A stretch of 64,000 bases of DNA from Rhizobiaceae bacterium (GTDB lineage: Bacteria > Pseudomonadota > Alphaproteobacteria > Rhizobiales > Rhizobiaceae). Below are positions 6,235 to 52,897 of the stretch, piece after piece. How positions within the stretch are numbered: the first letter of the stretch is position 1; each line of letters starts with the position of its first letter. The notes beneath the pieces are model-generated. The model worked only from the letters and a program-made list of their open reading frames with translations, did not search any database and had not been told where the DNA came from. The DNA lies in contig JBAVTG010000216.1 of assembly GCA_049696015.1 (NCBI GenBank), forward strand, positions 504 through 64,503. Direction: 5' to 3'. A program made the translations under genes and the position numbers.

Positions 6235-6310
6235 TCGCGCCAATTCGGGCCGGGCAGGGGCCGCGCGCCACTGCTTGCTTCGCCGCTTCCACCTCCCTCA
6301 CGCCCCAAAA

Positions 6311-6326
6311 GTTGACAGCTGTCAAC
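6311..6326. promoter_or_regulatory. parS-like palindrome GTTGACAGCTGTCAAC
   Basis: Perfect 16-bp palindrome, third of three identical copies, 92 bp from the second. Confidence 0.75.
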
Positions 6327-7911: not shown

Positions 7912-8099
7912 ATCCGCGGTCTGCCTGCCGGTCAGCGCATTGGCGCAATCAATCTGCACACACATTTCTGAAAACTGATGGCATTGGCAGGGCAGGGCGC
8001 TGTCCGCCGGGATGCGGTGACTCGCCAATTCGCGTTTGGACGTTATCGCGGCACAATGCCCACGATACCGGCAGTGTAGCCCCAACGTCACCGCCGGCA

Positions 8100-8121
8100 A
8101 CGCAGCCGTGACGCAGCCGTT
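8100..8121 (+). promoter_or_regulatory. Tandem 11-bp direct repeat ACGCAGCCGTG-ACGCAGCCGTT upstream of the first CIS gene
   Basis: Read directly from the sequence. It ends 50 nt upstream of the ATG at 8172. The one-helical-turn periodicity is the architecture bound by SARP activators; assigning it to the adjacent SARP is inference. Confidence 0.35.
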
Positions 8122-8171
8122 CGCGGCGCAGGCCAACCTTCCTCAAACGACTTGACCTGAGAGCGCATTGC

Positions 8172-9540: not shown

Positions 9541-9573
9541 CGCGCCCGACCGGCGCCGAGACAGGAGGACGAC

Positions 9574-25194: not shown

Positions 25195-25197
25195 ACC

Positions 25198-27324: not shown

Positions 27325-30300
27325 TGGCCGCTCAAATACTTCAGGGATTTGCGCCACGCACGGCAGCCATCGGCATTGCACCGCCGGTAGCGCGCCATGT
27401 CCCCCCCGAAGCCGGATTGCAGCGGCTTCGCTTCCACCGGGGCCGGCATCTGACTGCCGCTGCTTTGCAGTTGGAGGCAGATAACCATGAGGCGCGTTTT
27501 GGCTTGACTTGCCGGGCGTTAAACGACGGGGTTGTTGGCGGTTTTGCCGTTTCGCTGTTCGACCAGACAGCCGCACCCGGGCAGTTTCGGCTTGAGCCAG
27601 GTTTTGCCATTGCGCCATCCGGCCAGGATCTGGTCATTGACCGGCCCGCGCGGTTCGCCTTGTCCACATTGCCGCGGACAAGCGCGACGGGAGATGCGGT
27701 GCCTGCAACCACGACAGGCGTCGGCTTGCTGGTGCTGACCCCGGTCAGCGCAACCGAGACGCGCTTTGCGTCCACCTTCGACCGCGAAGCCGCCTTTCGG
27801 CGCGATCAGCAGCTTGATCCGTCGGCAGCGCCCTATCAGGACCCGCGCAGCGTCGATGGCGTGATGCTTTCGCTTGTGATGTTGGAGCCGCTGGCGGCTC
27901 AGGCAACCGCACCTGGCGGGATGCTGCGGGCGGCGTATCTTTTGGCCGAGGCCGAAGCCGTCGGCGCAGCCCTTGCCAGCCACGCGCGCGAAGGTGTGGC
28001 CGTTGCGATGCTGGGAATTGGCGCTGGCGAGCGCATACTGTGGATCAGCAGATATGCAGCCGCTCGGCGCGGCGGGGGCGCGCCACAGCCATTTACCAGA
28101 GCTTTCGCGGGCACAGGGTCGCTGCCGCCCCGGCTTGCCCAGGCGCAAGTCGACACACTTTTGGAACGCTTGCGCCAATTGCGCGGACCCGGCGCTTTGC
28201 CCGGCTCGCTTGATCCGGCCGAACTGCGGCACCTGCCGCCCGCCGGCATTCTTCCCGCTCCAGGCGGCGTAATCCCTTCGCTTTTCCCGCAAAGATGGGA
28301 ACAGTCCGTCACTCCAATTCCGCTGCGCCAGCTTGACGCTGTGTTTGAGGATGCTGCAGCGATGGAGCCCTTTGATCTCACTCAGCCAAATGACATCCTG
28401 CGCTGGTATGTGCCGGTCCCGGACGAATTGTTTGAAGCCGATCTTTTGCGAACACCACAGGTCTCAGAACTATTTGACGACGCAGTTGCCACGCTTGGCA
28501 GCCGTGTCGCCAAGGCCCATGGCGCGCGCAATGCCTTGCGCGCGGGTGGCGCTGCCGTGGAAGGGGCATTGGATACACGAACCATCCCGCCTGCCCCGGT
28601 CATCCCGGATCCGGAAGCTGTACCGGGCGAGCCGGCTGAGCAAAGCTCTGTCCCCACGCCCGATGTTGCGCCTGAAATCACTGCCTTGCGCGCGGCATGG
28701 TTTGCCAGCCTTGATACTGCCCTGCTCACGGCCGATCAGATGCATATGGCCAATCCAGCGAGCCCCGAGCAGGCAGGCAAACCCAAAGGCATCGTCCCGT
28801 TTCTGGCCAGCATGGTTGCCGGTATCAACGCCGCCGATGACCTGGTTGATATGGGATTTACCCGCGTTCAAACCGAGATCTACCGATTGCGCCAGATGGC
28901 GCTGGACAGCGAGGCTGCAACCAAGCTTGTGACTTTCCCGGTACTTGCAGGCATCGCCAAGGGATCCAATGCACTTGCCACATCCAAAGGCCTTTCAGAC
29001 CGGTTCCGCGCCGTCAAAGACGCTCCGGCGCAGCCCATCGTGCAGACGGTCGCACCAGCAATTCAGACATCTGCCGCAGTGGAAAACAACAATTTGATCA
29101 GGCGCAGCAGCCAGATCATGCAAGGCGTTTCAGCCATCGGCAGAGGCGCTGTCAAAAAGACGGACTTCAGCATGCAGGTTGGCAAAGCTGGCGCATCCGG
29201 CGTTGCCTTGGCAAGCGCACTGGGCATTGAGGTGGCGCCAAAAGACAGTTTTACCAATATCTTCAACGCATCGCGTGCTGTGGCCGTTGATGAAATCAGC
29301 CTGAGCAGCGTTGCCGACAAACGGGCCGGCATCTTGCTGGCAGACGCGATACCTGGCGATTATCAAGACTTGCGTACGCTCACCATTGCAAACCGCCTTG
29401 AAAACCCTGCGGCAATGACGGCGCGGGCAGCGGCGCTGCGGGTCAAGGCTGATGCGCTGGGCGCTTCGGCGCTGTTGGGCGTCAACTTGACCGGGGTGCG
29501 TGCGCCGCTGGTGGCCCTGGATGCCGACAACGCTCTGCTTTCGGGCAGTGCGCTGGACACTTTTCTGAATGAGATGCTGGGCCAAAATCAAACCGGCATA
29601 GTCAAGGAGGCTGCCGCCGCCTTGAAAAGAGCAGCTGTCCAGCTGCAGGGACCCGAGCCGGTATTCCACGTCCGCTTTTCCGGTCTTTCGGCCCCCCAAC
29701 GCGCAGATGCGGCCGTGCGCGCCTTCCTCGTGCGCATGCGCGCGGCACCCTCGCCGGTGGCAGCCAAAGAGCTGCCCGATCTTGTGCTCGCCCGCACATT
29801 CGACCCCGATCCCACGTCTGCCACGGACGAGGCGGCCTATTTGTCATCCGCAGTTGCGATACTGGAAAGTGTTGTGTCGCTCTATCGTGCCCTTGAAGGC
29901 CGCGTGCTTGCCTTGCGCAATGTGCAGCGCATCACGGACGAGGCGATGGCGAAGGTCGAAGCGCTGGTAACCCGCTGGCGCGAAGCGCTTGATAGCGCAA
30001 ACCGGGATCTGGCCGAAGCGCGCCATGATCTTTTGGCGGCAACGGCGCTTCTGGCCGAAGAGACGCAGCGCATCGCCGCGCTCGATGCACATCGCAAGGC
30101 GGTCGTTGCCAAACATGTCAATGCTGTGGTGTTCACCAGGGTTCGTCACCTGCGCCCTCACGGAGCAGGCGCTACATCGGGGCGGTTGTTGGCCGGCGTC
30201 TACGCCGATGCGACGCCCGCAGCCTTGGCACGGCCGGCCAAATTGCCCGACGTTCTCAATCGGATGATGGATGTGCTGGGCAACGTGCCGATCGGCTGGT

Positions 30301-31253
30301 TTGCGGCCCGCGACCGGTTGATGAAAGGCTATTCCGCACCCAAACAGCTCGACGCGGCTTTTCATTGGGCCGCTAACCGGTCTGTGGTCCGTCTGAGCGC
30401 GATGGAAAGCCTTGGCATAGGACGGACATTGACTGCCTCCGCCCCGGATATCGCACCTGCACGTCCCGGCAAACGAGGGCGGGCGGGCGTCGTTGCAGGT
30501 CAAATTGCCCAGCATTACGACGGCATATCACGCCAGTTGCTGCAGGCGCGGGGCAAGCTTGATCTCGGATTGATCGACCGTCAGGGATGGGTAGAAAAAC
30601 GCGCCCGTGCCGAAGTGGAGCTATCGCTCAACGATCTGATCGAAGGTGGCCGTGACAGTGTCGGAGCCCGCGACGCCCTGGCGGAAATCGATGGAATCGA
30701 ACGGGTCGTGTCAGCGCTTTCCCAAGCGATGCGCCGGGCGCCGGCGGAAGTGCGATTGCTGTGGGCAGACAGGCTTTCCGCATTTGACGGCGATCCGAAG
30801 CTGGGAGCTGTGGAGGCTCTGCCGGGCTTTTTCGGGATGGAGGCAAGTCTGCGGGCCGAGATCGGCTCGCTGCATGGCTGGCTCTTCCGGCGGATGACTC
30901 CCGGGCTGAAAGAGGGCGAAGCCTTGATGTCAGATTTCGTGCAGGTGACGGCCTTGCTCGCCGCCAATGCCGATGCTGATGCTGTCGTGACGGCGCGCCT
31001 TGCCAGCGCGGTGCAGGTGGCCGCTGGCGAGACTGTTGACATTGCACTCGACCGGGGCAGCCCGACGATCGGAACACCGGTGTGGTTTACGCTTGCAACC
31101 GGCATACAGGTGGCAGGGAAGGTGCGCGATGTCATCCAGAACCGCGCGCGCGTCGAGATTGCCGCAGGCACTGCCGGGCTGATGACGCTCGATCTTACAA
31201 CGCGCGTGTTTGTGGATGCCCGCCGCGCGAGCCCGCACGGCTATGTCCGTTGA
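27324..31253 (+). CDS. Unknown 1309-aa CIS-locus protein, paralogue 3 of 3 (long Ala-rich, probably helical C-terminal extension)
   Basis: TGATG junction with the upstream gene. N-terminal motif GRHLTAAALQLEADNHEARFGLTCRALNDGVVGGFAV...LEPGFAIAPSGQDLVI. The rest matches nothing I recognise. Confidence 0.65.
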   Translation: MAAQILQGFAPRTAAIGIAPPVARHVPPEAGLQRLRFHRGRHLTAAALQLEADNHEARFGLTCRALNDGVVGGFAVSLFDQTAAPGQFRLEPGFAIAPSGQDLVIDRPARFALSTLPRTSATGDAVPATTTGVGLLVLTPVSATETRFASTFDREAAFRRDQQLDPSAAPYQDPRSVDGVMLSLVMLEPLAAQATAPGGMLRAAYLLAEAEAVGAALASHAREGVAVAMLGIGAGERILWISRYAAARRGGGAPQPFTRAFAGTGSLPPRLAQAQVDTLLERLRQLRGPGALPGSLDPAELRHLPPAGILPAPGGVIPSLFPQRWEQSVTPIPLRQLDAVFEDAAAMEPFDLTQPNDILRWYVPVPDELFEADLLRTPQVSELFDDAVATLGSRVAKAHGARNALRAGGAAVEGALDTRTIPPAPVIPDPEAVPGEPAEQSSVPTPDVAPEITALRAAWFASLDTALLTADQMHMANPASPEQAGKPKGIVPFLASMVAGINAADDLVDMGFTRVQTEIYRLRQMALDSEAATKLVTFPVLAGIAKGSNALATSKGLSDRFRAVKDAPAQPIVQTVAPAIQTSAAVENNNLIRRSSQIMQGVSAIGRGAVKKTDFSMQVGKAGASGVALASALGIEVAPKDSFTNIFNASRAVAVDEISLSSVADKRAGILLADAIPGDYQDLRTLTIANRLENPAAMTARAAALRVKADALGASALLGVNLTGVRAPLVALDADNALLSGSALDTFLNEMLGQNQTGIVKEAAAALKRAAVQLQGPEPVFHVRFSGLSAPQRADAAVRAFLVRMRAAPSPVAAKELPDLVLARTFDPDPTSATDEAAYLSSAVAILESVVSLYRALEGRVLALRNVQRITDEAMAKVEALVTRWREALDSANRDLAEARHDLLAATALLAEETQRIAALDAHRKAVVAKHVNAVVFTRVRHLRPHGAGATSGRLLAGVYADATPAALARPAKLPDVLNRMMDVLGNVPIGWFAARDRLMKGYSAPKQLDAAFHWAANRSVVRLSAMESLGIGRTLTASAPDIAPARPGKRGRAGVVAGQIAQHYDGISRQLLQARGKLDLGLIDRQGWVEKRARAEVELSLNDLIEGGRDSVGARDALAEIDGIERVVSALSQAMRRAPAEVRLLWADRLSAFDGDPKLGAVEALPGFFGMEASLRAEIGSLHGWLFRRMTPGLKEGEALMSDFVQVTALLAANADADAVVTARLASAVQVAAGETVDIALDRGSPTIGTPVWFTLATGIQVAGKVRDVIQNRARVEIAAGTAGLMTLDLTTRVFVDARRASPHGYVR

Positions 31254-32931
31254 GGGCGTCACTTTGCGCCGGCTGGCGCTGACAGCAACGGATCGCGGCC
31301 ATGTCCGCCGCGTGTTGCCGGAGCTTGAAGATGCCATGCGCACAGCCAGTCTGCCAGGCGCGGGGCGCAGTGAAGTCGTGCTCGTTCGACGGCTGGATCT
31401 GGGACGGATCGCGCCCGGAACTTCGCGGCAGGCGCTGGCAGTGCGGATCGAAGCGCTGATGGCGGGTTTGTCGCCGGTTGTCGCTACCGATAGTCTGCGC
31501 ACCGGTGTTAGGGGCGCGCAAGGCAACGCACTGCGCTGGCCCGATCATGTGACATTGCTCGCTGACGTGGCTGTGTGTCTGGTCGGTAAGCCCGGCGGAC
31601 TGATTTCCGGCTGGTGGGTGGATGTGGCTTTGAAAGTGCCTGCGGGCAGCGCAACCCTCCAGGCTTTTGGAAAAGCAGTCCAGGCGATGCTGGACAACGC
31701 GCCGGTTGCATCGCGGCCGGAAATTCTGGGCGCTTTGGCTGCACGTTGTATAGCACTGGGCGCGATTCAGGCGCTTTTCCCGCTGGCCACCTTGATAGTG
31801 GCGCTTGCCGCAGACGTGCTGAGCGCGGGCGCCGGTTTCAAGGGTGCAGTCCTATTCAAGGATGAAGGCGTCAGCAGCGCCCGCATTGCCACATTGATGC
31901 AAAAAAGCGCGCCGGACCTGACCAGCGCATTGGCACAGGCATCCGTGATCGCCGCGCCGTTGGCAGTGCTGATCCTAGCACACCGGCATGGCCGCACCGG
32001 ACTTGTCAGGCGCTTGCTGCAGGCCGGGTCTACTCCAGAGGTCAGCGCTTTGGCAAATGCTGACGCGCATGCAAAGGCCAATGAACCGAGCAGCGGTATT
32101 GCCGGAAAGAGGGCCCGTGCCGAGGCCAGGCATGGCGGATTGTTGCCCCGGCAAGGCAATGCAGCGCCGCTTACGCCGGTCAGGCGAGCCCGCTCCCTTG
32201 GTTTGCCAGGAGCAGCCGCATGTGGAGCTGAAACCAGGGTAAGCGATCCGGTTTCGATTATGGCAAAGGCGCGATCTGACGTGCCCACATGGGGCGGCGG
32301 TTTTCCAATCCTCGTGAACTTGCTTCGCCTGACCGGTATCAACGCCATGGAAATGCAGCTGGATCATCCCCTTTGTCTGCCCTTAGCGCGCACACTGCTG
32401 TCACGCCTGATGCCCGATGATCCGCTGCTCGCCGCACTTCCCGAAGCAGCGCCGCCGCTGTCCTTACCACTTGTCCCTGCCTTGCCCGAGCCCATGTTGC
32501 TGGCGCTTGCGCGAGGCGTTGCGGCAATTCCCGGCCATCCAGGGCGCCGCGCGCTCATGCTGCGGCAGGGATGTGTGATCGGAATTCTGGACGGGGCAGG
32601 GCTAAAGCGGATCCGCGCTTTGGAGGACAGGCCGGTTCTGCGGCGAATGCCGCCGTTGAAAGGCCCGCTGGAGCCGGCGCTCCTGGCCGGTCTTCAATTG
32701 GGGCTTTCACGCCTGTTGCTGCGACACTGCGGCCGCAGCCTGCGCGCCACACTGCGCCGCCCGGGCTGGTTGGCAGCAAGTCCCACCCATATCGACATAA
32801 CGCTCGATCTGGCAGATGTGCGGATCGCAGAACGCCGGGCTGGCCTGGATCTGTCGCCCGGTTGGGTGGCGTGGGCGGCACGGGTGATCCTCCTGCACTT
32901 CGAGCCAATGGAGGGTCGCCATGCCTCGTGA
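31243..32931 (+). CDS. Hypothetical CIS-locus protein preceding the ATPase
   Basis: The ORF overlaps both neighbours by 11 nt (ATG at 31243 chosen; track start 31210). No motif recognised. Confidence 0.55.
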   Translation: MSVEGVTLRRLALTATDRGHVRRVLPELEDAMRTASLPGAGRSEVVLVRRLDLGRIAPGTSRQALAVRIEALMAGLSPVVATDSLRTGVRGAQGNALRWPDHVTLLADVAVCLVGKPGGLISGWWVDVALKVPAGSATLQAFGKAVQAMLDNAPVASRPEILGALAARCIALGAIQALFPLATLIVALAADVLSAGAGFKGAVLFKDEGVSSARIATLMQKSAPDLTSALAQASVIAAPLAVLILAHRHGRTGLVRRLLQAGSTPEVSALANADAHAKANEPSSGIAGKRARAEARHGGLLPRQGNAAPLTPVRRARSLGLPGAAACGAETRVSDPVSIMAKARSDVPTWGGGFPILVNLLRLTGINAMEMQLDHPLCLPLARTLLSRLMPDDPLLAALPEAAPPLSLPLVPALPEPMLLALARGVAAIPGHPGRRALMLRQGCVIGILDGAGLKRIRALEDRPVLRRMPPLKGPLEPALLAGLQLGLSRLLLRHCGRSLRATLRRPGWLAASPTHIDITLDLADVRIAERRAGLDLSPGWVAWAARVILLHFEPMEGRHAS

Positions 32932-34765
32932 CGGACCTGACCCGCACGACACCGGCCTTGATGCGATACTGGGGCTGGCGCTTGATGGCCTGGCGGGCGT
33001 CGCTGCCGTCGGGCCAGCAATGCTGGAGACCGCTCTTGCCAACCCGTCGCCGGCCGAGATGCGCCTTGTCGGACCCGGCCATGCGCTGGGACTTTCCGCT
33101 GGCGAACTCTTTTGCCTGTGGCTGCTTTTCCGGGTTGAAGCCGATGCCGATCTGGCGCGCAGGATCGGAGGCATGCAAGAGGGCGAAGCAAGACACCGGC
33201 CATCGCCGGCACTCATGGCGAGCTTGCTGGTTGCGCTGGGGGCAGGTGAAACCAACCTTCTCAACGGACCGCTTTTCCGGCTGCCGCTGGCGCGCCTTCT
33301 GCCCGGGCCAGCGCCGATGGTTCTCACGGCAGCAGCGCTGACGGACCCGATGCTTTCGGCGCTTGGTCTGCCAGGCGCGCCGCCGCTGACTGCAGTTCCT
33401 TTCTGCGCCGATGTTCCCGATGGCTGGCGGGTTTGCGCAGCACAGATTGCCGACGGTCTGGTTGCCGCCGCCCGTCCGGCGCGTAAACTGGCGCTGGTGC
33501 TGCGCGGCGGCCTGCCTGCCGATCAGCGGTTGTTCGCATCTGCAATTGCGCAGGCGCTCGCCCGCCCCTTGATCGCGCTCGAACCGGATGCCGCGCGCGC
33601 CGGACTTGGCGCCGCCTTGCGGTTTACGGGCGCCGTGCCCTTTGAAGCGCCAAAACCTGCACCCGGCACGCGTGCCGGGTTGCTGCCGCTTGATCATTGC
33701 GGCGATCTGCGGCTTGTGGCGTTGGGAGCGGACGGAGGGGTTGAGGCTGCGGGCTGGGACTGCGCCGATATCCCCGTGCCTGCCTTGAGCGCGGCAGATC
33801 GCGGCGGCCTCTGGCCGGGAGCCGCAGACTTGCCGATTGACGGTCTTGGCCCGGCGCGCTTGCGCGCGGTGGCGGCAAGGATGGCGCTGACAGAACCGGG
33901 CATAAAGGAAAGTGCGGCATTCCGGGCGGCAGCCGGCGCCGAGGCACGCGCCGACATCGAGCCTCATGGACAGCTGGTATCGGACGAGGTTGATGATGAA
34001 GGCCTTGTTGCGCCGCCGGAACTTGCAGGCGACCTCGCGCTTTTGGCCGCGCGCTGCCGCCAGCGGCGTTTGCCGCGCGCGCCCCTTGGTCCGGCCTTTG
34101 CCGCCAGATCGGCTGAAACCGGGGTGCGGGCATTGCTCTCCGGGCCGTCTGGCGCGGGCAAAACTCTGGCGTGCGCTTGGCTGGCCACTCGTCTTGGAAT
34201 GCCGTTGTTTCGGGTGGACCTGTCATCGGTGGTGTCCAAATACATTGGCGAAACCGAGGAAAACCTTGCCCGCATTCTCGACCGGGCCGAAGCGGCAGAC
34301 GTCATCCTGCTCTTCGACGAAGCTGACAGCCTGTTTGGCGCACGAACCGAGGTGAAGGACAGTTCGGACCGCTTTGCCAACAACCAGACCAACTATCTGC
34401 TGACACGCATCGAAAACTATGGCGGGATAGTGTTGATGACGGCGAACGGGCGGAGCCGGATTGATCCGGCCTTTGCCCGGCGCATCGAACAAATCATAGA
34501 CGTGCCAGTGCCCGACGCCGCAACCCGCCGCTTGATCTGGCGCGCGCACCTGGGCGGACATCATTGCCTGAGCGGCGCGGACTTGTCCCGGCTTGCGAGC
34601 AGCGCCGACATTGCCGGTGGGCACATCCGCGCCATAGTTCAGACAGCGGCAGTCATTTCAGCCGAGGCGGGCACACCCATTTCTTATGCAGACCTGCGCC
34701 GTGCACTCATTCTCGAGTATCGCAAAATCGGGCGTACGCCGCCCAGCCAACTGGTGTCGCCATGA
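32921..34765 (+). CDS. AAA+ ATPase (Afp15/Pvc15-like) with long N-terminal extension
   Basis: Walker A LLSGPSGAGKTLAC, Walker B VILLFDEADSLF, VSKYIGETEENLARILDRA and IDPAFARRIEQIIDVPVPD form a classic CDC48-type AAA module in the C-terminal roughly 230 aa. The roughly 380 aa preceding it are unassigned. Confidence 0.85.
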   Translation: MPRDGPDPHDTGLDAILGLALDGLAGVAAVGPAMLETALANPSPAEMRLVGPGHALGLSAGELFCLWLLFRVEADADLARRIGGMQEGEARHRPSPALMASLLVALGAGETNLLNGPLFRLPLARLLPGPAPMVLTAAALTDPMLSALGLPGAPPLTAVPFCADVPDGWRVCAAQIADGLVAAARPARKLALVLRGGLPADQRLFASAIAQALARPLIALEPDAARAGLGAALRFTGAVPFEAPKPAPGTRAGLLPLDHCGDLRLVALGADGGVEAAGWDCADIPVPALSAADRGGLWPGAADLPIDGLGPARLRAVAARMALTEPGIKESAAFRAAAGAEARADIEPHGQLVSDEVDDEGLVAPPELAGDLALLAARCRQRRLPRAPLGPAFAARSAETGVRALLSGPSGAGKTLACAWLATRLGMPLFRVDLSSVVSKYIGETEENLARILDRAEAADVILLFDEADSLFGARTEVKDSSDRFANNQTNYLLTRIENYGGIVLMTANGRSRIDPAFARRIEQIIDVPVPDAATRRLIWRAHLGGHHCLSGADLSRLASSADIAGGHIRAIVQTAAVISAEAGTPISYADLRRALILEYRKIGRTPPSQLVSP

Positions 34766-35769
34766 TGGGCGATCGCGAACCCGCGCCAAATCTGGCGGCA
34801 GAAGTGGCGGCGCTGCATAACCCTGATCTTGGCCAGACCATGATTTTTGATCCGGGCCTTGGATTTGACGAGATGACAGCCCGCCTTTCAGGGCTTGGCT
34901 TTCAATGCGAACCGGTTCCGGCAATGATGCCGTCCTTGTTGGAAGGCGAGCCTTCATCAGCCGCGTTTTCTTTTGGCGGCGCCAGGCCATTTCTCGACTA
35001 CCGCTTCAACCCGGTGGCGCGTCTTCGCGTGCTTGAAATGGCCACTGCCCCGCCCCTGATGCGTCAGCGGATCGCACGGGCCATGCCGCAATTGACCCTT
35101 GGCGCCTTACGCCAAAACCTTGGCGCGGCGCTGGACCGTGATGTTTTGCGTGCGATCTGGGGGCTGGTCGAACTTGAAGATGTCAGCGCGACCGAAGCGA
35201 TTGCTGCGCTTGCCGCACACCCTTCCGGCCCGGTGGCGCAAGAGGCTGTCCTGGCGGCGGAAAGGCTGCGCTCTGTCAATGCGGCGCGTGTAAAGGTATT
35301 GGGCGGGATGCGCATGGCGGCGCTTGCCGCACGGGATATGATCAGAGCGATTGCCACGGACTCTCAAGCGTTACTGGCCCGGCCCGAAGATGCGGCGGAG
35401 CTGTTTACCGAAGACATCGCCAATGTCATCGCCGCATCTTTGAAGGCCGTTCCGCTTGTCTTGCCTGACCGGTTGCCTGCAGCACCGGATGATGTGGCGG
35501 CCATCACGGCCGCACCCGCCGGTCTGCTTCGTTGGGATAATATGCTGAGCCGCCCGTTTCCAACCGGCTACCGCACAGTTGCAGGATGGATGAAGCCCGA
35601 CCGGGTCTGGGTGACATGGCGCGGCAGCGATTTGCGTGGCCAGTCAGGCCCTGACACGCTCTGGGACGGCCTCGTCTTTCTCGGCAACCGCTGGGTCTGG
35701 TTTCCGCGCCCATTCCGCCAAATAGCGGCGCATCTTGGCACCGCTTGGGCAGAGCCCCTTAGCCCATGA
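34762..35769 (+). CDS. Hypothetical protein between ATPase and giant gene
   Basis: ATGA overlaps at both ends (34762 and 35766). 335 aa, no motif recognised. Confidence 0.55.
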   Translation: MMGDREPAPNLAAEVAALHNPDLGQTMIFDPGLGFDEMTARLSGLGFQCEPVPAMMPSLLEGEPSSAAFSFGGARPFLDYRFNPVARLRVLEMATAPPLMRQRIARAMPQLTLGALRQNLGAALDRDVLRAIWGLVELEDVSATEAIAALAAHPSGPVAQEAVLAAERLRSVNAARVKVLGGMRMAALAARDMIRAIATDSQALLARPEDAAELFTEDIANVIAASLKAVPLVLPDRLPAAPDDVAAITAAPAGLLRWDNMLSRPFPTGYRTVAGWMKPDRVWVTWRGSDLRGQSGPDTLWDGLVFLGNRWVWFPRPFRQIAAHLGTAWAEPLSP

Positions 35770-45212: not shown

Positions 45213-46070
45213 CTACAGGCACGCCGCCAGCGGCGCTGACAGTGGCGTGCTGACCAGCCCGCTCATATGGACAAAGCCTTGATGCGTATCGCTCCCGTCA
45301 ACATCGACCGATGCCCATTTGGTGAGGTAACGCTTTTTGACAGGCGGGTTCGGACGGACGCAGTGCGCGCGCGTGCCGTAAGCAATGGCACGAATGTGCA
45401 GGGGTGTTCCGGGCGCAAGTTCGCGAACAATTGGCGCACCGCCATCAGGTCCACGCCGCAGGTTCAGCGGCTCACTGGCTTTTACCTTGGTTTTGAAGCC
45501 AAGTGATTTGCTTGTCGTCACCATTGTCTTGAGTGCCTCCAGATCAAAAAGCGGCCCCGGATCAAACTTGCCCATGATTGCAACATCGTGGTGCCCGACC
45601 ACATCGGCAATCGGGTAGCGTTCAATCAAGTCTTTCGCGATGGTGTGGCAGGCCTCGATTTGCGCTTTCGGATAGGTTTCCCATTGCTGCATGGACGCAT
45701 CATTTGGATTGTAAATCAGTTTGCCGGAGCTGTGCGGCGCGTTGCCATAGGCAAATCCTTTGTTCATCAGGCAGATGCCGACAGAGTCTTGACTCACGGA
45801 ACTGTCGAGCGTGATCCCTCCCTGTGCTTTCCAGTTGCTCAGACCCGGATGCGCGGCGGATTGGGTGAATGGGCGCGTCTGGAAGGCTTCGCCATCCTTT
45901 TCGATCAGGATGTGATAGCCAAGCTTGTTTTGGTTCAGCGCCGCAACGGCTTGCGCCACCGTATCGGTCACCGAATAGTGGATAACCAGCAGCTTTGGCG
46001 TCTGACTTTTGCCTACATGCAGCAGCGGCTTTTTGGCCAGACCGCTGATGAAATGATTGGTTATGCTCAC
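45213..46070 (-). CDS. N-acetylmuramoyl-L-alanine amidase (amidase_2 / PGRP fold) with C-terminal SH3b-like domain
   Basis: LLVIHYSVT..., HHDVAIMGKFDPGPLFD is the amidase_2 signature. The C-terminal NLRRGPDGGAPIVRELAPGTPLHIRAI...WASVDVDG...GFVHMSGL is SH3b-like. GTG start at complement(46068..46070) is preceded by GGAGAA; the track ORF extends to 46187. No signal peptide. Confidence 0.8.
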   Translation of the reverse strand: MSITNHFISGLAKKPLLHVGKSQTPKLLVIHYSVTDTVAQAVAALNQNKLGYHILIEKDGEAFQTRPFTQSAAHPGLSNWKAQGGITLDSSVSQDSVGICLMNKGFAYGNAPHSSGKLIYNPNDASMQQWETYPKAQIEACHTIAKDLIERYPIADVVGHHDVAIMGKFDPGPLFDLEALKTMVTTSKSLGFKTKVKASEPLNLRRGPDGGAPIVRELAPGTPLHIRAIAYGTRAHCVRPNPPVKKRYLTKWASVDVDGSDTHQGFVHMSGLVSTPLSAPLAACL

Positions 46071-46095
46071 GGAGTTCTCCTGTTGCAAACAGAGT

Positions 46096-47226
46096 TCAAA
46101 CTGACGGCGGGGCGCCATCGGGACGATCTGCAGGGCCACCCTTGTCGGGCGTGAAGTATTTGCGGATGCGGCTTGCGGCATGGGCATAGCCCGCCTTGAG
46201 GATCAGGTTCTGCTGCGCGCGTGTCATCTTTGACAGCCGCGTCGGCACTTCCTGCGCTGCCACATATTCCGCCTTGGTCAGCATTTTCGGCATGTCTTCA
46301 GGATGATTCAATCCTGTCGTCAGCCCCCACATCGCCCCGGTGCGCGCGCCCGAGCGATAGGCATCGGCAAGAATGCGCTCACGCAGGTTTTCCGACTGAT
46401 CCATCAAAATGTCGATGACCCTGAGCGATTGCTGCAGCCAGTCGCGGGCAGGGGTCTCATCATAGCCGAAGGGCTTTCCGGCATTGGAGACAAACACGGT
46501 GCGCAGCCGTTTCCAGACTGTCTCCGTGCCCATGTTGTCATAAACGCCGCCGTCGGTGAGAACAGCTTTTTGTGTGAAAGGGGCACGCGCCAGATGACCC
46601 TTGTCCGCAGCTGCGATGGTGCCGTCCGACAGGTCCACATCGGACGGCGACAGGAATGGCGGAAATGCCGCCGAGCAGGCGATGGCCCGCGACAGTTTCA
46701 GGTCAACGCCCTTGATGACACCGATGTGGTGGTCAGCGATATAATCCGGCCGGAAGCGCATGACAGCGCCGGTCATCAGGTTTGTCGCATTGAACACGAA
46801 CAGCGGCTTGGTCGGCAGGCTTGCCAGTTTGACATTCTTGGCAATGTGCTTGTCATAACTTTTGGCCGCCATGTCAGCGGCCGTCACAAGCGGCAAGATG
46901 CCGACCAGCGCCGAACCGACGTCAATGGAATCCTCCGATTGGGCAATCAGCGGTTTCAGAAAAAGGTCCTTCAGGTTTGTGGCGACGCCTTTGGCATCAA
47001 ACGTCAGCTTGGGCCAGGCCACGGCCAGCGCCGCAGCCGTCATCGAACCGCCCGAAACGCTCGACACGCGCTTGAGCGGCTTGATCAGGCCAAGCTCGTT
47101 CATCCGGAAAATGGCACCGGCATGAAACAACATCGCCCGATAGCCGCCGCCGGAGATGCAAAGACCAGTGCCGTCCTCCAGCTTGTCGCCGTCTATTGCC
47201 GATAGTTTCGGTTTGTCCACGGGCAT
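46096..47226 (-). CDS. Patatin-like phospholipase
   Basis: Oxyanion motif ISGGGYRAMLFHAG, nucleophile elbow SVSGGS (GxSxG-like) and catalytic Asp motif LTDGGVYDNMG. No signal peptide. Confidence 0.85.
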   Translation of the reverse strand: MPVDKPKLSAIDGDKLEDGTGLCISGGGYRAMLFHAGAIFRMNELGLIKPLKRVSSVSGGSMTAAALAVAWPKLTFDAKGVATNLKDLFLKPLIAQSEDSIDVGSALVGILPLVTAADMAAKSYDKHIAKNVKLASLPTKPLFVFNATNLMTGAVMRFRPDYIADHHIGVIKGVDLKLSRAIACSAAFPPFLSPSDVDLSDGTIAAADKGHLARAPFTQKAVLTDGGVYDNMGTETVWKRLRTVFVSNAGKPFGYDETPARDWLQQSLRVIDILMDQSENLRERILADAYRSGARTGAMWGLTTGLNHPEDMPKMLTKAEYVAAQEVPTRLSKMTRAQQNLILKAGYAHAASRIRKYFTPDKGGPADRPDGAPPSV

Positions 47227-47237
47227 GGCGTCCTCCT

Positions 47238-48488
47238 TCAGATTGTTGGGGATAGTTGATAGATCAGGGCATGTTCATTTTTCACCGCCAGCCGGTTTTC
47301 AGCGCCGCGGAATTCGAAATTGACGTTCTCTGCAACGCCCGGCAGCGTCTTCAAATGCGCGATTGCCGCGCTGAGGGTTTTGACTTTCTTGGGGCCGTCA
47401 ACAAATGACGGCAGCGTGCCGTCCAGCGGCACATAGTTCATGTCCCCGTTGGTAAACGCCATCGTGAACTTGCGCCCCTTGGCGGCTTCTCCCGCAACGA
47501 TTTCCAGCACTTCCGGGTCCGGGTTCTGGTCTTTGCCATTGGCGCAAAACACATAAATGTCGGCGGTTACGCCCGCGATGAACTTTTTCTGCACGTTGGC
47601 CTTTGAGCCATGGTGCGGCACTTTCAGAATATCGACATGGAATGGCTTGTTCTTTGTCTTCAACCCCTTGGCTTCAAGCGAGCGAAGGACAAAGTCGCCG
47701 CGCTGATCGCCAGTCAGCAGGATGCGCCGCTTCTCCCATTCAATCAGCATGGTGATCGATGACAGGTTCAACACGGAATTGTCTTCCGAAAATTCCTTGA
47801 TGGCCGGCACGCCCGAGGCTGTGAGCGGAGTGCCAGGCGCAACGAGTTTGCTTTTCTTGGCCCATTCTTTCTTGAGGTTTTCCAGCTCTTCCTTGCCAGG
47901 ATTGAGCACGACGATGTTCGCAGGTCCAAAGCTAGCCGCCTCATGCCCTGCCGCAATCAGATTCCCGCGATCTTCTGTGCCTTTGTTGACGCTTGTATTT
48001 CCCGCACTGGCAAAAACCGAGAGATTATCGCCGTCGGCAATGCTAAGGCGCTCCAACTCATTGACCGTGGCCGCGTCGATATCGACTCCTTGCACAACGC
48101 GCGAAAACGAATTGTGCCAAAGCCTTGGCGCTCTGATCTGTTCGCCGCCGTCGGGCAATGTGCCGTTGCCTGTCCAGCCGGTGAAGAGCCGGACAACCCC
48201 GTCAATATGATCGTCGTGAACATGGGTGCAGACAACCAGATCCAGATCCAGCTGCGGGTCGCCAGCGGTGATGTCTTCGTCGGTTGATTTGGCGTCCCGC
48301 TCCGCCTTGATTTCCAGAAGGCGCGGAATGATCCGTGTCTTTAAAGGACTGTAAGAGCCGCCATTGTGGCTGCCGGTCGAGTCCGGCCCCGCGTCGATCA
48401 GCATGACCCGCTCAAAACCCATGTCACCCATATAGCGGACGACGATAGCGTCGCCATGACCAGCGTCGATGGCTTCAAATGTGATCAT
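47238..48488 (-). CDS. Metallo-beta-lactamase-fold hydrolase (ComEC/Rec2-type MBL domain)
   Basis: IDAGHGDAIVV, LIDAGP, VCTHVHDDHIDG (HxHxDH), LLTGD and KVPHHGS are the full set of ComEC-type MBL motifs. No TM segments and no signal peptide. Confidence 0.8.
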   Translation of the reverse strand: MITFEAIDAGHGDAIVVRYMGDMGFERVMLIDAGPDSTGSHNGGSYSPLKTRIIPRLLEIKAERDAKSTDEDITAGDPQLDLDLVVCTHVHDDHIDGVVRLFTGWTGNGTLPDGGEQIRAPRLWHNSFSRVVQGVDIDAATVNELERLSIADGDNLSVFASAGNTSVNKGTEDRGNLIAAGHEAASFGPANIVVLNPGKEELENLKKEWAKKSKLVAPGTPLTASGVPAIKEFSEDNSVLNLSSITMLIEWEKRRILLTGDQRGDFVLRSLEAKGLKTKNKPFHVDILKVPHHGSKANVQKKFIAGVTADIYVFCANGKDQNPDPEVLEIVAGEAAKGRKFTMAFTNGDMNYVPLDGTLPSFVDGPKKVKTLSAAIAHLKTLPGVAENVNFEFRGAENRLAVKNEHALIYQLSPTI

Positions 48489-48500
48489 GCCGTCCTCCCT

Positions 48501-50786
48501 TCAAACCGACTGCAGCGCCCGCAGCGCGTCCACCAGGCCTGCGCCCTGAAAGTGCCGCTCGCGCCCCAGATCCGTCGCTGTGTTCATCAGGATTTGCTTG
48601 ATCCTCTGCGGCTCGCCTATCAGCTCCGGGTAGCGGCCCATCAACAAAGCGCATACGCCCGAGACATGGGGCGCGGCCATCGAAGTTCCGTCCATGATAA
48701 GCATCTTCTCGCCCGGAATGGCCGAGCGTATCTTTTCGCCCGGTGCGACGATATCCGGCTTCATCCGCCCGTCACCGGTCGGCCCGCGGCTGGAAAAATA
48801 GCTGACGCCATAAGTGTGCGGCTCACTGTGGTGCGTCGCCCCGACCGTTATCACCTCTTGGGCATTGCCGGGATCGGTAATGGTCATTCCGCGATAGCCG
48901 ACGCCGAGCTTGGCCTGTTTATGCTCTTTGTCAAAGCCGGAATTGCCAGCAGCGGCGACAACCACCGTGCCATTCCACACCAGCCGGTCGCAGGCATCGC
49001 AAACCGGCGTTCGCCCGCAGGCATGGCTATCCACTTCAAATGGGATCGCCAGCGACAGGTTGATACCATGAATGGCAGGGCGCATCGGATCGCGGTTCAG
49101 CCATGCCACATAGTCAAGCGCCGCCAGAACGGTGAATTCATCGCCGCCGTCAACAGCAGTCGGGCCGTAACGCTTCTCTTGCCCCTCCTTGATTTCGGCG
49201 CGCGCCGTGTCGCCGTTTCCAAAAACACGCAGATCAAAGATTTTGATGTCGGGGCAAACGCCTTCAAATGGATCACTGTCGCCGATCACGCCGTTTCTCA
49301 GTTCGCGCCCTGCAAGGATGCCCGCCACATGCGTGCCGTGCGGATCGGAAGGCACTGGCGCAGTCAGGGGGTCCATGCGGATCAACCCCTCCAGAAGCGA
49401 CCAGTTGAGCTGCCGTCCGGTGATGTTTTCATCACGGATCGATTTGAGCGAGCGCAAAAGCGCCATCCGCACCGGTCCTCGTTTTTCCAAGTCGGTCGAG
49501 TTACCGGTGATCCGATCGATAATAATGTCGATTTGGCTCGCATTTTCGGCCAGCAAATCCTGCAGGATCGTGAAGTCCAGTGTTGCCACAACACGCGTCT
49601 TTGGAGCGGCCGGCGGCTCCGACATATCAAAGACAGCGGCTTCTGCTGCGTTGTTGTCCGGATCCGCCGGCTTTGGCGCTTCCAGGAATACACTGTGCCT
49701 GGCATCGATACCGGTGTCGATAACCGCCCACGCCAGGTGCGATGTCTTGATGCCAAAAAGCTTCTTGGCGGCATCGGCCTTTACCGTAATGGCTGATTGG
49801 TTGGCCCGGCCCGAAACTTTGGGCGGTCTTCCTGGCGCCGCCTGTTTCAAGGTTGGGCGATTGAGTTGGATCGACCAGATTGCGATTTCATCCGACAACC
49901 CTTCGACCCCTGCATCTCGTTCATCATCGTCGGGCGGCAAGTTGCGGCTCTTGTCTTTGATCAGTTCCCTGTATTTCTGCCAGAAGGGCTCGAGCACTTT
50001 GAGTTTGATGCGCGCTGCCGGTGCGTCTCGGCCCAATCTGACACGTTCGGGAAACAATTCCCGCTCGTCGTTCGTCAGTTCCGATTCAGCTGAATGGACT
50101 GGTGCGAGTACATCGAAAAACTTGTCAAAATCCTCGTAATCGATTTCCTCTTCTGTCAGCAGGCCCTGTGTAAGCGCTGAAAGCGCTGCAAACCGGAAGA
50201 ACTCGGTGTCATCCAGACTGACCATCGCTGACAGGACTGTCGCGCCCTTGTCGACTTGATCTTCCAGGTCTTTTTCCAGGAGGTCCTTATTGGAATAGGT
50301 TTGCTTCTTCCACCAGGCTGTCAGCGGCAGGAGGTAGTCCATCATCTCTTCAAATGTGACATCAATGGCCACATTGCGGGTCGTTGCCGCAATGCGGAAT
50401 TTGCCCAGGTCTGCCTGATCACGCTCCCGCTGTTTGTCAGCCTCCAGCGTCGTGCCCCGTATCTCGCGCCTGCGGCCAAGGATGATCTGTCTGATCTTCT
50501 CGGCCAATTGTCCCGCGTGCCCCGCCGGACGCCCGTCGGGGCTCATCGTCTGCTTTGGGGTGAGGATGAGCGGCAGCCTGTACTTCTTGGCAATTCCGGT
50601 ATTCTTCGACGGGTTGGACAGCCGCCAGCGGGCGAGCTTTAGAAACCAAACCCATACATCCGGACGTATCGGTGAATCCTGCGTGAACCGGCGCAGGCCA
50701 AAAGTCTCAAACACCAGACTCTGGATGAGAGAATCGGGCAGTTCCACGGGTTTTGGCTTTTCGGCCCGGTCTGATTGCTTCGCCAA
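48501..50786 (-). CDS. Subtilisin-like S8 serine protease with unknown roughly 350-aa N-terminal domain
   Basis: Catalytic triad motifs AVIDTGIDARH (Asp), HGTHVAGILAG (His) and GTSMAAPHVSGVCALL (Ser). The N-terminal half matches nothing I recognise. No signal peptide. Confidence 0.85.
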   Translation of the reverse strand: MAKQSDRAEKPKPVELPDSLIQSLVFETFGLRRFTQDSPIRPDVWVWFLKLARWRLSNPSKNTGIAKKYRLPLILTPKQTMSPDGRPAGHAGQLAEKIRQIILGRRREIRGTTLEADKQRERDQADLGKFRIAATTRNVAIDVTFEEMMDYLLPLTAWWKKQTYSNKDLLEKDLEDQVDKGATVLSAMVSLDDTEFFRFAALSALTQGLLTEEEIDYEDFDKFFDVLAPVHSAESELTNDERELFPERVRLGRDAPAARIKLKVLEPFWQKYRELIKDKSRNLPPDDDERDAGVEGLSDEIAIWSIQLNRPTLKQAAPGRPPKVSGRANQSAITVKADAAKKLFGIKTSHLAWAVIDTGIDARHSVFLEAPKPADPDNNAAEAAVFDMSEPPAAPKTRVVATLDFTILQDLLAENASQIDIIIDRITGNSTDLEKRGPVRMALLRSLKSIRDENITGRQLNWSLLEGLIRMDPLTAPVPSDPHGTHVAGILAGRELRNGVIGDSDPFEGVCPDIKIFDLRVFGNGDTARAEIKEGQEKRYGPTAVDGGDEFTVLAALDYVAWLNRDPMRPAIHGINLSLAIPFEVDSHACGRTPVCDACDRLVWNGTVVVAAAGNSGFDKEHKQAKLGVGYRGMTITDPGNAQEVITVGATHHSEPHTYGVSYFSSRGPTGDGRMKPDIVAPGEKIRSAIPGEKMLIMDGTSMAAPHVSGVCALLMGRYPELIGEPQRIKQILMNTATDLGRERHFQGAGLVDALRALQSV

Positions 50787-51287
50787 TTCAAGTCCCTCGC
50801 ATAGTTGCCGTCATTCTAAACGGTCTGCGCCGATGGTGGACAAAACTGCTCCAGCCATCGTTGCGCAGCCTCTTTGAGTCAGATGCGCCGGCTCAGAGCT
50901 CGCGGGCTTCTTATCTGAATTCTGAACGCGGCAGCGAACCATCGAGCGCATAGGCGTCAGCAGGCCGCGTAGCGCCGCAATTGCGCTAGCTGCATTCAAT
51001 ATCCTGCAGGGGGCCGTTCCGAACATGGCCATCACTCTTGGTCAACAGCAGCGATCTTTGTTGCTTGCCTGCCTTGAAGCACAACAACGGCGGCATTTTT
51101 TCGGACCTCGTTCACGCTACCGTAACGTCAGGTTGCGCGCAAGATGGGAACAGCCGTCCAATGAGATTGACGAAATTCAACGCCTATGCCCGCGATGACG
51201 ATTCAGGCAGTAAACACTGCGCGCAGTGCCAGCGCTCCGGCAGTGCGGCCATGCTTGTGGCAACCACGAATTCCAGCTCTGTTTTGA

Positions 51288-51659
51288 TCGGCCGTCCGCC
51301 GCTTGTGGCGCGGTGAGGAAGTTCAGTTTGCGCAAGGCGAAGCGATGCTTGGCGTCCGCACGTTGCCACGCCCGGTGCAGCCTGAGTTACCTTTCTGGCT
51401 GGCAACGACAGGCCGCGATGACTCATTTGCCGCGGCGGGCGATATGGGCGCTCATGTTCTGACCCATCTGCTTGGCCAGGACATGGCGGATTTGACGCTG
51501 AAAATCGGCCTCTGCCGTGCAGTTCGCCTTCGCGCCGGCTATGCAGGCAGGGGCAAGGTAACGCTGATGGTGCATACTTTTTTCGCGCGAGACAGACAGG
51601 CGGCACTCGCCGATGCGCTGACGCCGCTCAAACTTATCTTGCCGCTAGGCTTGATCTGA
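51288..51659 (+). pseudogene. Remnant of a luciferase-like (MupA/Atu3671-type) FMN-dependent monooxygenase
   Basis: AVRRLWRGEEVQF...VRTLPRPVQPELPFWLATTGRDDSFAAAGDMGAHVLTHLLGQDMADLTLKIGLCRAV...GKVTLMVHTFFA matches the middle of this family as I remember it. An in-frame TGA lies immediately upstream (51285..51287). There is no matching N-terminal third, and the frame stops early at 51659. Confidence 0.5.
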
Positions 51660-51848
51660 ACCGCGCTGCAGCCTGCGGGCCAAAAGCGGGCAAACGCATC
51701 TCCGCCACTGCCAGAAATGCCATGCGCATTTCCTTCCATGCAATAACTCATTGTTATCGCTGAAAAGTCGCACTTCAATATAGAACGCACCCCCGCTACA
51801 TCTTCCAATGCGATAATCCGCATTATGGAACGAACTTGTTCTGATGTC

Positions 51849-52613
51849 CTACCAGCAGACAAACCCGCCATCGACGATCAGATCGTGGCCGGTAATGAAG
51901 CTTGCGGCATCGCTGGCCAAAAACACGGCGGGTCCTGCCATCTCTTCAGCTTCCGCAATGCGCTGCATCGGCGTCCCGGCGGCAAATTCCTTGAGCTGCT
52001 CGGCCACTTCCGGCCGCTTGTTCATCGGCGTCAGCGTATAGCCAGGGCTGATCACATTGACGCGAACGCCACGGTCCGCCCATTCCATCGCCAGACTTTT
52101 CGACAGATGGATCACCGCCGCCTTGGACGAATTGTAATGCGCCTGGTTCAGCCCGCGGTTGACAATCGTGCCGGACATCGAGGCGATGTTGATGATCGAG
52201 CCGCGCTTGCGTGGCAGCATCACCCTTGCTTCCGCCTGGCAGGACAGGAAAACCCCCGTCACATTGACCTCGTACAGCCGCTGCCATTGCGCAAGGCTCA
52301 TGTCTTCGCCCGGCGCTGAATTGGCAATGCCGGCATTGTTGACGGCAATCTCAAGCGGTCCCAGATCACGCTCGATCTGCGAGACGGCAAAGGCGAGCGC
52401 GTCCGGCGTTTCAACAGACCCTTCCAGCACCAAGGCCCGGCGGCCAAGTTTGCGCACGGCTTCTGCCGTCACTTCAAGCCCGCCCTTGCTGTTGTGCCCG
52501 AAACAGGCCACGTCCGCGCCAGCCTCAGCCAGTCCGATGGCAATGGCCTCGCCAATGCCCGATCCTGCCCCGGTCACCAGCGCCACGCGTCCGGTCAAAT
52601 CAAAAGCTTTCAT
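51849..52613 (-). CDS. SDR-family oxidoreductase
   Basis: VTGAGSGIGEAIA (TGxxxGxG), NNAG and YNSSKAAVIHLSK (YxxxK). ATG at complement(52611..52613) with AGGAGA upstream; the track ORF starts at 52682. Confidence 0.85.
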   Translation of the reverse strand: MKAFDLTGRVALVTGAGSGIGEAIAIGLAEAGADVACFGHNSKGGLEVTAEAVRKLGRRALVLEGSVETPDALAFAVSQIERDLGPLEIAVNNAGIANSAPGEDMSLAQWQRLYEVNVTGVFLSCQAEARVMLPRKRGSIINIASMSGTIVNRGLNQAHYNSSKAAVIHLSKSLAMEWADRGVRVNVISPGYTLTPMNKRPEVAEQLKEFAAGTPMQRIAEAEEMAGPAVFLASDAASFITGHDLIVDGGFVCW

Positions 52614-52897
52614 CCCGCTCTCCTGCGCTTTGAAGTGCCGGGTGCTGACCGGCGCTGGTTCATGGTTGACGAAAATACGCACAATGCCAAGTGTTTATCG
52701 CGACCGGCGCCTTGAAAAAGGCCATCAGCGCGCTTTGATTGTTCAACTAGTGCGCATTCATTCCAACAAAGATGCGCATTTTTTTAACAATAATTGGTGC
52801 GTGGATTGAAATATTCTATTGACGCTTGAACAATTGTTCATGAAAACTGGAAAGCAGATCAGCAGACAATGAATGTCCGCCAAGAAGGATAATCATC

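Follow-up and report, generated by a model that had tools for sequence, protein, structure and literature searches.

A 2842-residue protein at the end of a contractile injection system operon of a Rhizobiaceae bacterium ends in a predicted PoNe-type DNase domain and is followed by a PoNi-type gene

The window analyzed in this work is a stretch of 64,000 nucleotides from a Rhizobiaceae bacterium (GenBank assembly GCA_049696015.1, contig JBAVTG010000216.1, positions 504 to 64,503). At positions 35766-44294 of its forward strand we found a single reading frame of 2842 codons, the product of which is mostly helical and rich in alanine and is called the giant below. The operon 5' of this gene encodes a complete contractile injection system (CIS), with two sheath genes (9574, 12312), a gp19-type tube, a CIS tube protein, a gpD-like hub, a spike OB domain, gp25, baseplate J, P2-I and three CIS13-type fibres. 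As an earlier first-pass annotation of this DNA had stated, the giant gene is the last large gene of the operon, and its ATG overlaps the upstream stop codon by 4 nt (ATGA). We observed the same type of coupling at the other end of the gene, where the TGA of the giant overlaps the GTG start of the next open reading frame (ORF) by 4 nt (GTGA). Coordinates of all features are collected in Table 1.

The C-terminal end of the giant and the ORF that follows it could both be assigned by homology. A profile headed by the terminal domain of the window protein matched chain B of PDB entry 9waq ('VP14465', the founding PoNe) with an E value of 1.7e-24 (89.8 bits). The domain alone also had 9waq_B as its top match in PDB (E=0.0018), in an alignment spanning the E, D and (D/E)xK positions. 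The PoNe motif was defined as Kx3GE...GIDx2Y...Yx3ExK (Jana et al. 2019, PMC6688995). The corresponding residues of the window copy are VGRWAE (2711-2716), QIDMIY (2749-2754) and YVIVDAK (2763-2769); the E, the D and the (D)xK are thus kept, while the K, the G and the first G are replaced. Distant relatives of the domain carry the exact published motif (EKGNYGE...GIDGVY...YxIV(D/E)xKYG). Moreover, an AlphaFold2 (AF2) model of the domain, with a pLDDT (predicted local distance difference test) score of 93, shows the expected order of helix, three strands and helix. The downstream ORF matched the Pfam family PoNi_C (E=3e-21), and its residues 39-263 aligned with 9waq_A, a DUF1911 protein (E=1.4e-13). 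Jana et al. 2019 (PMC6688995) reported that 90% of PoNe genes have a DUF1911 gene directly 3' of them. Judged by homology, a PoNe-type DNase domain makes up the last ~175 residues of the giant, and a PoNi immunity protein is encoded by the gene after it; DNase activity and its neutralization by PoNi would be predicted. The giant and its neighbor therefore appear to form a polymorphic toxin-immunity pair, which the first-pass annotation had missed. It had described most of the protein as unrecognizable, and this was right insofar as Pfam, NCBIfam and PHROGs gave no significant match to the giant, either whole or cut into ten pieces of 300-350 residues, a search in pieces that it had itself proposed. 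The PoNe domain, found by profile comparison with 9waq, and the PoNi gene had been overlooked.

We then asked where else this domain occurs. When the last ~215 residues were used in an exhaustive profile search, 164 representative proteins sharing it were retrieved, and among the matches listed (150 of 164) the domain lay no more than 20 residues from the C terminus in 135 of 150 proteins. Its carriers include RHS proteins and P0019, a protein of 1709 aa that has an N-terminal eCIS_core/DUF4157 domain, the marker of extracellular contractile injection systems (eCIS), and a hydrophobic block in its center, and that terminates in a PoNe-like part. The P0019 locus (L043, contig 1-9836) contains two consecutive DUF4157 genes, the second of which encodes P0019, and a PoNi_C gene comes next and overlaps it. 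PoNe/PoNi pairs thus occur more than once in eCIS contexts.

Table 1. Features of the giant and of neighboring genes, in window positions
Feature	Residues	Positions	Strand	Remarks
orf573		31210..32931	+	573 aa; Afp14 position; 549-574 aa in related loci
AAA ATPase		32921..34765	+	Afp15/Pvc15 position; domain match and synteny
orf401		34564..35769	+	probably ~335 aa from a later start; directly 5' of the giant in 22/32 loci
Giant ORF		35766..44294	+	2842 aa, 298 kDa, pI 5.9; candidate CIS-associated polymorphic toxin, supported by relatives
Acidic N terminus	1-172	35766..36281	+	Pro/Gly/Ala/Ser/Thr-rich, low-complexity; 31 D/E, 6 K/R
N-terminal core region	173-753	36282..38024	+	conserved; motifs PDLxxIRAPxLRxPP and TGxTPSQHHAxIQ
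Hydrophobic stretch 1 (AVAAVSVV...AAYLGY)	761-787	38046..38126	+	weak Gly/Ala/Val stretch
Annexin-like repeat	1295-1367	39648..39866	+	degenerate, GAGT...SGDD; ~195 aa before the hairpin
Predicted membrane hairpin (FFTSLITAAALIV...ATMAV)	1500-1542	40263..40391	+	helix-PG-helix, uncharged
Gly-rich block	1543-1700	40392..40865	+	invariant KxGxRGxRYGWEE, then Gly/Ala-rich with about a dozen invariant Gly
EEGxH(V/A)xQ...E domain	2198-2280	42357..42605	+	candidate degenerate PVC-type zincin
Predicted coiled-coil hairpin	2283-2346	42612..42803	+	long, antiparallel; AF2 model
Boundary motif FLDQPARLF	2366-2374	42861..42887	+	ends the conserved core; ARLF modeled as a strand; GC drops after it
Variable pre-toxin linker	2375-2667	42888..43766	+	common to L002 and, in part, L005
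PoNe-family PD-(D/E)xK DNase domain	2668-2842	43767..44291	+	predicted catalytic E2716, D2751, D2767, K2769
PoNi (DUF1911) immunity gene		44291..45100	+	269 aa; GTGA overlap with the toxin stop

In a further step, we investigated how widely the remainder of the protein is conserved. A first homology search yielded nine relatives, the full-length ones being 32-43% identical to the giant, and scans with patterns taken from the Gly-rich block (residues 1543-1700) brought in a further 21 genomic and 10 metagenomic loci. The genome loci belong to Rhodobacterales (Aliishimia, Sulfitobacter, Poseidonocella sp. HB161398), Microvirga pakistanensis, many Gammaproteobacteria, Burkholderiales and Myxococcaceae. 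By sequence comparison, a core of ~2200 residues (~175-2374) is conserved across Proteobacteria and Myxococcota; it holds the annexin-like repeat, the hairpin, the Gly-rich block and the EEGxHxxQ...E domain, and it ends at an invariant (W/F)LDQPARLF. Total length ranges from 2484 to ~3500 aa. The tails past the boundary motif measure 470-1190 aa and fall into at least four unrelated classes; that of L015 (3262-6213) contains an adenosine-deaminase domain (33 bits) and that of L020 (9419-19024) a true HExxH motif (GHERTHVMQ). In most cases the ORF after the giant abuts its stop codon or overlaps it, and this ORF varies jointly with the class of the tail. In the window, the GC content is 0.66-0.68 in the core, 0.62 right after the boundary motif and 0.55 across the toxin-PoNi junction. 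Since tails and downstream ORFs switch together at a point where the GC content drops, we conclude that this is, on the sequence evidence, a polymorphic toxin system with cassette exchange, in which everything past (W/F)LDQPARLF is swapped together with the following ORF.

Relatives also helped to define the true start of the gene. One public gene call (P0001) begins the giant at residue 250 and places an out-of-frame ORF across the acidic region. However, the motifs PDLxxIRAP and TPSQHHAxIQ (residues 175-215), which are kept in relatives, lie 5' of that start, and the long ORF is therefore the real gene. The out-of-frame public ORF encodes 242 aa at window positions 35833-36561, over the acidic N-terminal coding region; together with the start at residue 250, it looks like a miscall in GC-rich, low-complexity sequence.

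We then compared the surroundings of the giant gene in the 32 other loci for which 4 kb or more of upstream sequence was available. Homologues of the CIS genes of the window were present near the giant in 29 of them, 22 of which had the order AAA-orf401-giant. To judge from these sequences, it is nearly always the giant that closes a CIS operon as its last large gene. This agrees with the cargo position that the first-pass annotation had assigned to it, its relatives being found nearly always at the same place and not, for the most part, outside CIS loci. The three loci in which no CIS gene was found are L031, a very weak member of the family, L026 and L037. In the Myxococcaceae locus L015, CIS genes are nearby on the opposite strand. 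In the most distant relatives (L009, L010, L028, L030, L040 and L041), an orf401 homologue lies 3' of the giant and its downstream ORF, so that the association between orf401 and the giant is preserved despite the altered order. The AAA ATPase, which occupies the position of Afp15/Pvc15, is by analogy the probable cargo loader. No eCIS_core/DUF4157 family and no DUF4255/Pvc16-type terminator were found by Pfam among the ORFs scanned in the operon (9574-35769), and HExxHxxQ proteins were absent from the fetched loci, except for one toxin tail. The CIS lineage of the window may thus lack the classical DUF4157 marker. Searches of orf401, orf573 and the largest fibre against PDB sequences, and of the giant against plasmids and phages (tblastn), gave no match. 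The three fibre genes are consecutive (window 24307-31253; 295, 708 and 1309 aa). In each fibre, the match to the NCBIfam CIS13 model is confined to the first ~60-90 model positions, and the fibres seem to share an attachment module joined to different distal parts. The largest fibre had no match among phage sequences by tblastn, and the fibres gave no clue to the target.

The extremely acidic N terminus noted at first pass was borne out. Residues 56-160 contain 27 D/E and no K/R, and the most negative 105-residue stretch has a net charge of -27, a value reached by none of 2000 shuffles of the protein. The first 130-190 residues differ in sequence among relatives, most of which retain the acidic, Pro-rich composition. 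No Sec/Tat-like hydrophobic region was seen when the giant N terminus was read. Signals of eCIS cargo consist of 50-70 N-terminal residues that are disordered and hydrophilic and are read by the AAA ATPase Pvc15 (PMC11495950, PMC11297309). The disordered, hydrophilic N terminus fits these published signals and, by analogy, residues 1-172 would be a candidate loading signal, in line with the packaging signal suggested at first pass. More speculatively, residues 173-753 might be a docking domain.

Two hydrophobic segments had been reported, and they proved to be of unequal value. The first, at residues 761-787, has a 19-residue hydropathy of 2.12, which was matched in 26% of shuffles and is thus not beyond chance, and about half of the relatives exceed the threshold of 1.6 at the same place. 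Because shuffles often match it and its conservation is partial, this stretch is weak evidence for a membrane segment. In contrast, the second is a 43-residue hairpin without any charged residue, with a Pro-Gly turn midway and a mean hydropathy of 2.16 over its whole length, which none of 2000 shuffles reached. It was found in every relative, with P1520, G1521 and N1523 invariant, and is a hallmark of the family. K/R residues come after it, and so does the invariant motif RGGRYGWEE of the Gly-rich block. The hairpin would insert in the membrane of either the target or the producer. Such segments had been regarded as unusual for CIS cargo, but they are less so than had been supposed: a hydrophobic block is likewise found in the center of P0019, a DUF4157 eCIS toxin that carries this DNase domain, and fusions of annexin, transmembrane (TM) and toxin parts were noted between 2012 and 2014. 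A further uncharged run of 37 Gly/Leu-rich residues (NGLGLGLGVLSVTSGGTLAGLGMLGQ...) lies at residues 1051-1087 (window 38916-39026), in a region that aligns poorly among relatives.

An annexin-like repeat precedes the hairpin. When the family profile was compared with PDB, only annexin matches stood out, with a weak match to annexin A1 (E=0.003). At the orthologous position, Pfam Annexin (PF00191) scored 38 bits in L008 (cut-off 25) and 20.7 bits in L017, while P0009 reached 75.5 bits with 2 repeats. The GxGT and SGD of the repeat are conserved across the family. A membrane role for single annexin domains in toxins delivered by Photorhabdus virulence cassettes (PVC) was proposed by Zhang et al. 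2012 (PMC3482391).

Just before the toxin, and not at the N terminus, lies the EEGxH domain (residues ~2198-2280 of 2842), in which E2250, E2251, G2252, H2254, Q2257 and E2272 are invariant. Its AF2 model (pLDDT 80) comprises, in this order, a strand, a helix and two strands, then one helix that bears EEGLH and another that begins at E2272. The motif resembles HExxHxxQ-E, which in the DUF4157 toxins goes with a fold of 3 strands and 3 helices, on matching predicted secondary-structure elements, but the first His is replaced by Glu. We find this resemblance striking and put forward a zincin fold, on the basis of the model, as a hypothesis only.

Taken together, these data led us to propose that the giant is a polymorphic toxin dependent on the upstream CIS, the core of which would load the protein, cross a membrane and possibly release the DNase; we give this proposal a probability of roughly 0.6. 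Indeed, the giant has the general features of eCIS polymorphic toxins: it is encoded with CIS genes, its N-terminal part is constant, and the C-terminal toxins vary and have cognate genes downstream. We infer a sequence of loading, translocation and cleavage. PoNi would keep the DNase inactive in the cytoplasm of the producer, the disordered acidic N terminus and the AAA ATPase would load the giant into or onto the particle, as for PVC cargo, and contraction would expel it into the target envelope. There, the annexin-like repeat, the hairpin and the glycine-rich block would bind to and insert in the target membrane, carrying the C-terminal part across; the EEGxHxxQ...E domain beside the boundary motif may then cut the toxin free near LDQPARLF, and the DNase would degrade target DNA. 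By a rough estimate from general dimensions, a 298-kDa chain takes up ~360 nm3 and the lumen of a 4 x 100 nm tube ~1250 nm3; since the volume of the chain is below that of the lumen, one unfolded copy could fit. Coupled immunity-like ORFs are nearly universal in the family, and bacterial targets are therefore favored, a eukaryotic target being also possible.

Several observations weigh against this proposal. An immunity gene would be needed for any DNase made in the cytoplasm, so that PoNi is no proof of a bacterial target, and the presence of the giant in particles is a prediction from sequence. The inner membrane of the producer is an equally possible site of insertion for a hairpin followed by basic residues. 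The two Myxococcaceae-type loci L026 and L037 have no recognizable CIS gene in the 10 kb upstream, and their neighbors include an ATP-grasp protein. The annexin copy of the window is too degenerate to give a Pfam or annexin match on its own. The best Foldseek matches of the PoNe model (tRNA-splicing endonuclease, Hjc, Cas4-family, HamA and NhoI) were folds of the endonuclease type, with a best E value of 6e-3 and none at or below 0.001. Pfam DUF4157 (PF13699, eCIS_core) was unmatched (E<=10) in the whole protein, in the ten pieces and in 22 family members, and hhalign found no match between the EEGxH domain and the DUF4157 domain of P0019. Foldseek with the EEGxH model returned nothing at E<=0.001, a predicted zincin ranking 13th (E=1.6). 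The hidden Markov model aligns EEGlH on HEATH at only 1.3 bits, which 13 of 300 shuffles equaled. A profile search of PDB with this domain also gave only chance-level matches. Homology of the EEGxH domain to DUF4157, tried in four ways, was thus not established.

The ambiguity of the hairpin is the starting point of another explanation, in which the giant would sit in the inner membrane of the producer and tether the CIS to the envelope, making it a cell-bound machine similar to a type VI secretion system (T6SS), with the toxin end carried along or released on firing. The strong hydrophobicity of the hairpin and the K/R residues after it are compatible with this, as is the lack of an export signal, and both large flanks could stay in the cytoplasm beside a cytoplasmic PoNi. 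The size and conservation of the core resemble a machine part more than ordinary cargo, and membrane-tethered CIS with dedicated transmembrane proteins, e.g., SalCis19, have been reported (bioRxiv 10.1101/2025.06.01.657177). However, a Sec signal and a periplasmic hydrolase domain, both present in SalCis19, were not seen in the giant, and the N terminus of the giant resembles a cargo signal rather than an anchor. Moreover, a similar central hydrophobic block occurs in a toxin with the DUF4157 marker of eCIS, and a structural anchor would leave swappable C-terminal toxins with matching immunity genes unexplained. We consider tethering unlikely.

The giant might also act in the cell that makes it. 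CIS and DNase would then form a regulated module for self-killing or lysis, comparable to what was proposed for the cytoplasmic CIS of Streptomyces, with PoNi as the antitoxin. Formally, the toxin-immunity pair also counts as a toxin-antitoxin pair, genes for an amidase and a patatin lipase lie just downstream on the opposite strand, and a CIS acting inside the cell in developmental cell death has been documented (PMC10020575). We nevertheless judge this explanation improbable: PoNe/PoNi pairs are documented as delivered interbacterial toxins (PMC6688995), the same DNase domain is found on RHS and DUF4157 carriers, the three fibre genes suggest binding to an external target, and diversification of cassettes is typical of conflict between cells. 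Even less credit was given to the giant as an unrelated neighbor, a toxin exported by another route that happens to lie beside the operon. Two related loci without nearby CIS genes would fit such an arrangement, but 29 of 32 loci, from taxa far apart, keep the synteny, both adjacent genes overlap the giant gene by 4 nt, and no signal peptide and no marker domain of type I, V, VI or VII secretion was identified in the giant by domain scans and inspection of the sequence.

Phage tape-measure proteins are long, helical residents of the tube lumen with hydrophobic segments and sometimes a metallopeptidase, as in Pb2 of phage T5. A tape-measure-like role for the largely helical, Ala-rich giant, in which it would set tube length and form an exit channel with a toxin fused to its end, was rejected as very improbable, since its length is variable (2484 to ~3500 aa), it has no similarity to phage proteins, and an ORF of constant length (549-574 aa) holds the Afp14 position in every locus, making orf573 the better candidate for tape measure.

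If the giant is indeed a CIS-delivered toxin, it resembles several known systems without coinciding with any of them. Its C-terminal domain is homologous to the PoNe V12_14465 (PMC6688995; PDB 9waq), has the same layout of catalytic motifs, is likewise terminal and is followed by a DUF1911 gene. In contrast, the copy in the window has diverged (K->V, G->A and E->D in the motif), the giant has no FIX, PAAR, RHS or LXG domain, and Jana et al. tie PoNe to type V, VI and VII secretion, whereas the carriers in the window and in L043 are proteins of CIS loci. With the DUF4157 toxins of PVC and other eCIS (Zhang 2012, PMC3482391; Geller 2021, PMC8213781), the giant shares the location at the 3' end of an eCIS operon, a constant part joined to variable C-terminal toxins, long linkers, a single annexin-like repeat and an HExxHxxQ-E-like motif on matching predicted elements. 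It differs from them by giving no match to PF13699, by the Glu in place of the first His of the motif, by the domain lying before the toxin instead of at the N terminus, and by a constant part of ~2200 aa without Pfam coverage. Immunity-like ORFs, which are the rule in the family of the giant, also set it apart: many or most DUF4157-type eCIS toxins have no adjacent immunity gene (PMC3482391, PMC8213781). Fusions of annexin, TM and toxin parts (Kodavali 2014, PMC3894181), such as that of Burkholderiales bacterium JOSHI_001, similarly have one or more annexin repeats near a membrane anchor and a C-terminal nuclease-type toxin; in the portion of that paper considered here, no link to CIS is mentioned, nor are immunity cassettes, a conserved core or a boundary motif. 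Two distant relatives of the giant from Burkholderiales genomes (L028, L029) share this annexin-TM-toxin layout.

The size of the giant had also been likened to that of Afp18, encoded by the antifeeding prophage of Serratia entomophila. The likeness holds for a very large last eCIS gene located 3' of the ATPase and for a hydrophilic N terminus, but not for the sequence: tblastn of the whole giant against a plasmid collection including pADAP (NC_002523) gave no match at E<=1e-3. The reading as an Afp18 homologue was rejected, no similarity having been found. We know of no immunity gene for Afp18. PrePAAR effectors of the T6SS, e.g., Tse6, have N-terminal transmembrane domains thought to pass a cytoplasm-acting C-terminal domain across the target inner membrane, come with cognate immunity, and need Eag chaperones and PAAR. 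As proposed here, the giant would similarly be an injected antibacterial toxin with hydrophobic helices and an immunity protein. In contrast to these effectors, it carries its hairpin in a central position, and homologues of Eag or PAAR were not identified.

Polymorphic toxins of eCIS/PVC, some with a single annexin domain, annexin-TM-toxin fusions and PoNe/PoNi pairs are thus already in the literature. In the parts considered of the literature on these three (Zhang 2012, Geller 2021, Kodavali 2014, Jana 2019), we saw no description of a carrier family with a ~2200-aa core, of the invariant hairpin, of the boundary motif, of a zincin-like motif next to the toxin or of a link between PoNe and eCIS. 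Under our proposal, eCIS would join the delivery routes described for PoNe toxins. The family touches on how eCIS cargo passes target membranes and on whether eCIS act against bacteria, both of which are open questions; the puzzling scarcity of immunity genes was discussed by Geller et al. (PMC8213781). It offers a tractable case, with a conserved carrier that has a clear membrane module, a sharp boundary motif and a DNase for which a toxin-immunity structure is solved, and carriers exist in the cultured strains Poseidonocella sp. HB161398 and Microvirga pakistanensis NCCP-1258. The carrier could also serve as a scaffold for payload exchange in engineered injection systems. Tentatively, and with doubt, we extend the proposal to a core that is a self-contained translocation machine, combining annexin-like lipid binding with a hairpin that inserts, helices packed through their glycines and a protease of its own for release, or to an effector that first sits in the membrane of the producer as a firing site. 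If the first of these were true, a phage-tail-like particle would deliver enzymes acting in the cytoplasm across the inner membrane of Gram-negative rivals, and the family would represent an eCIS lineage that is widespread, is truly antibacterial and can exchange its warheads.

Finally, the region downstream of the operon was inspected. No intrinsic terminator clearly beyond chance expectation was found after the PoNi gene. On the reverse strand, at 45213-48488, genes for an N-acetylmuramoyl-L-alanine amidase with SH3, a patatin-like phospholipase and a weakly matched protein of the metallo-beta-lactamase fold converge on the end of the operon, and they could provide lysis or release functions or be further effectors. 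Neither amidase nor patatin families appeared in the gene calls for related loci, though no search was aimed at them. Over the 10 kb past the operon (44000-54000), the GC content is 0.57-0.59, compared to 0.62-0.66 within the operon, which suggests that the operon end is a compositional boundary as well.

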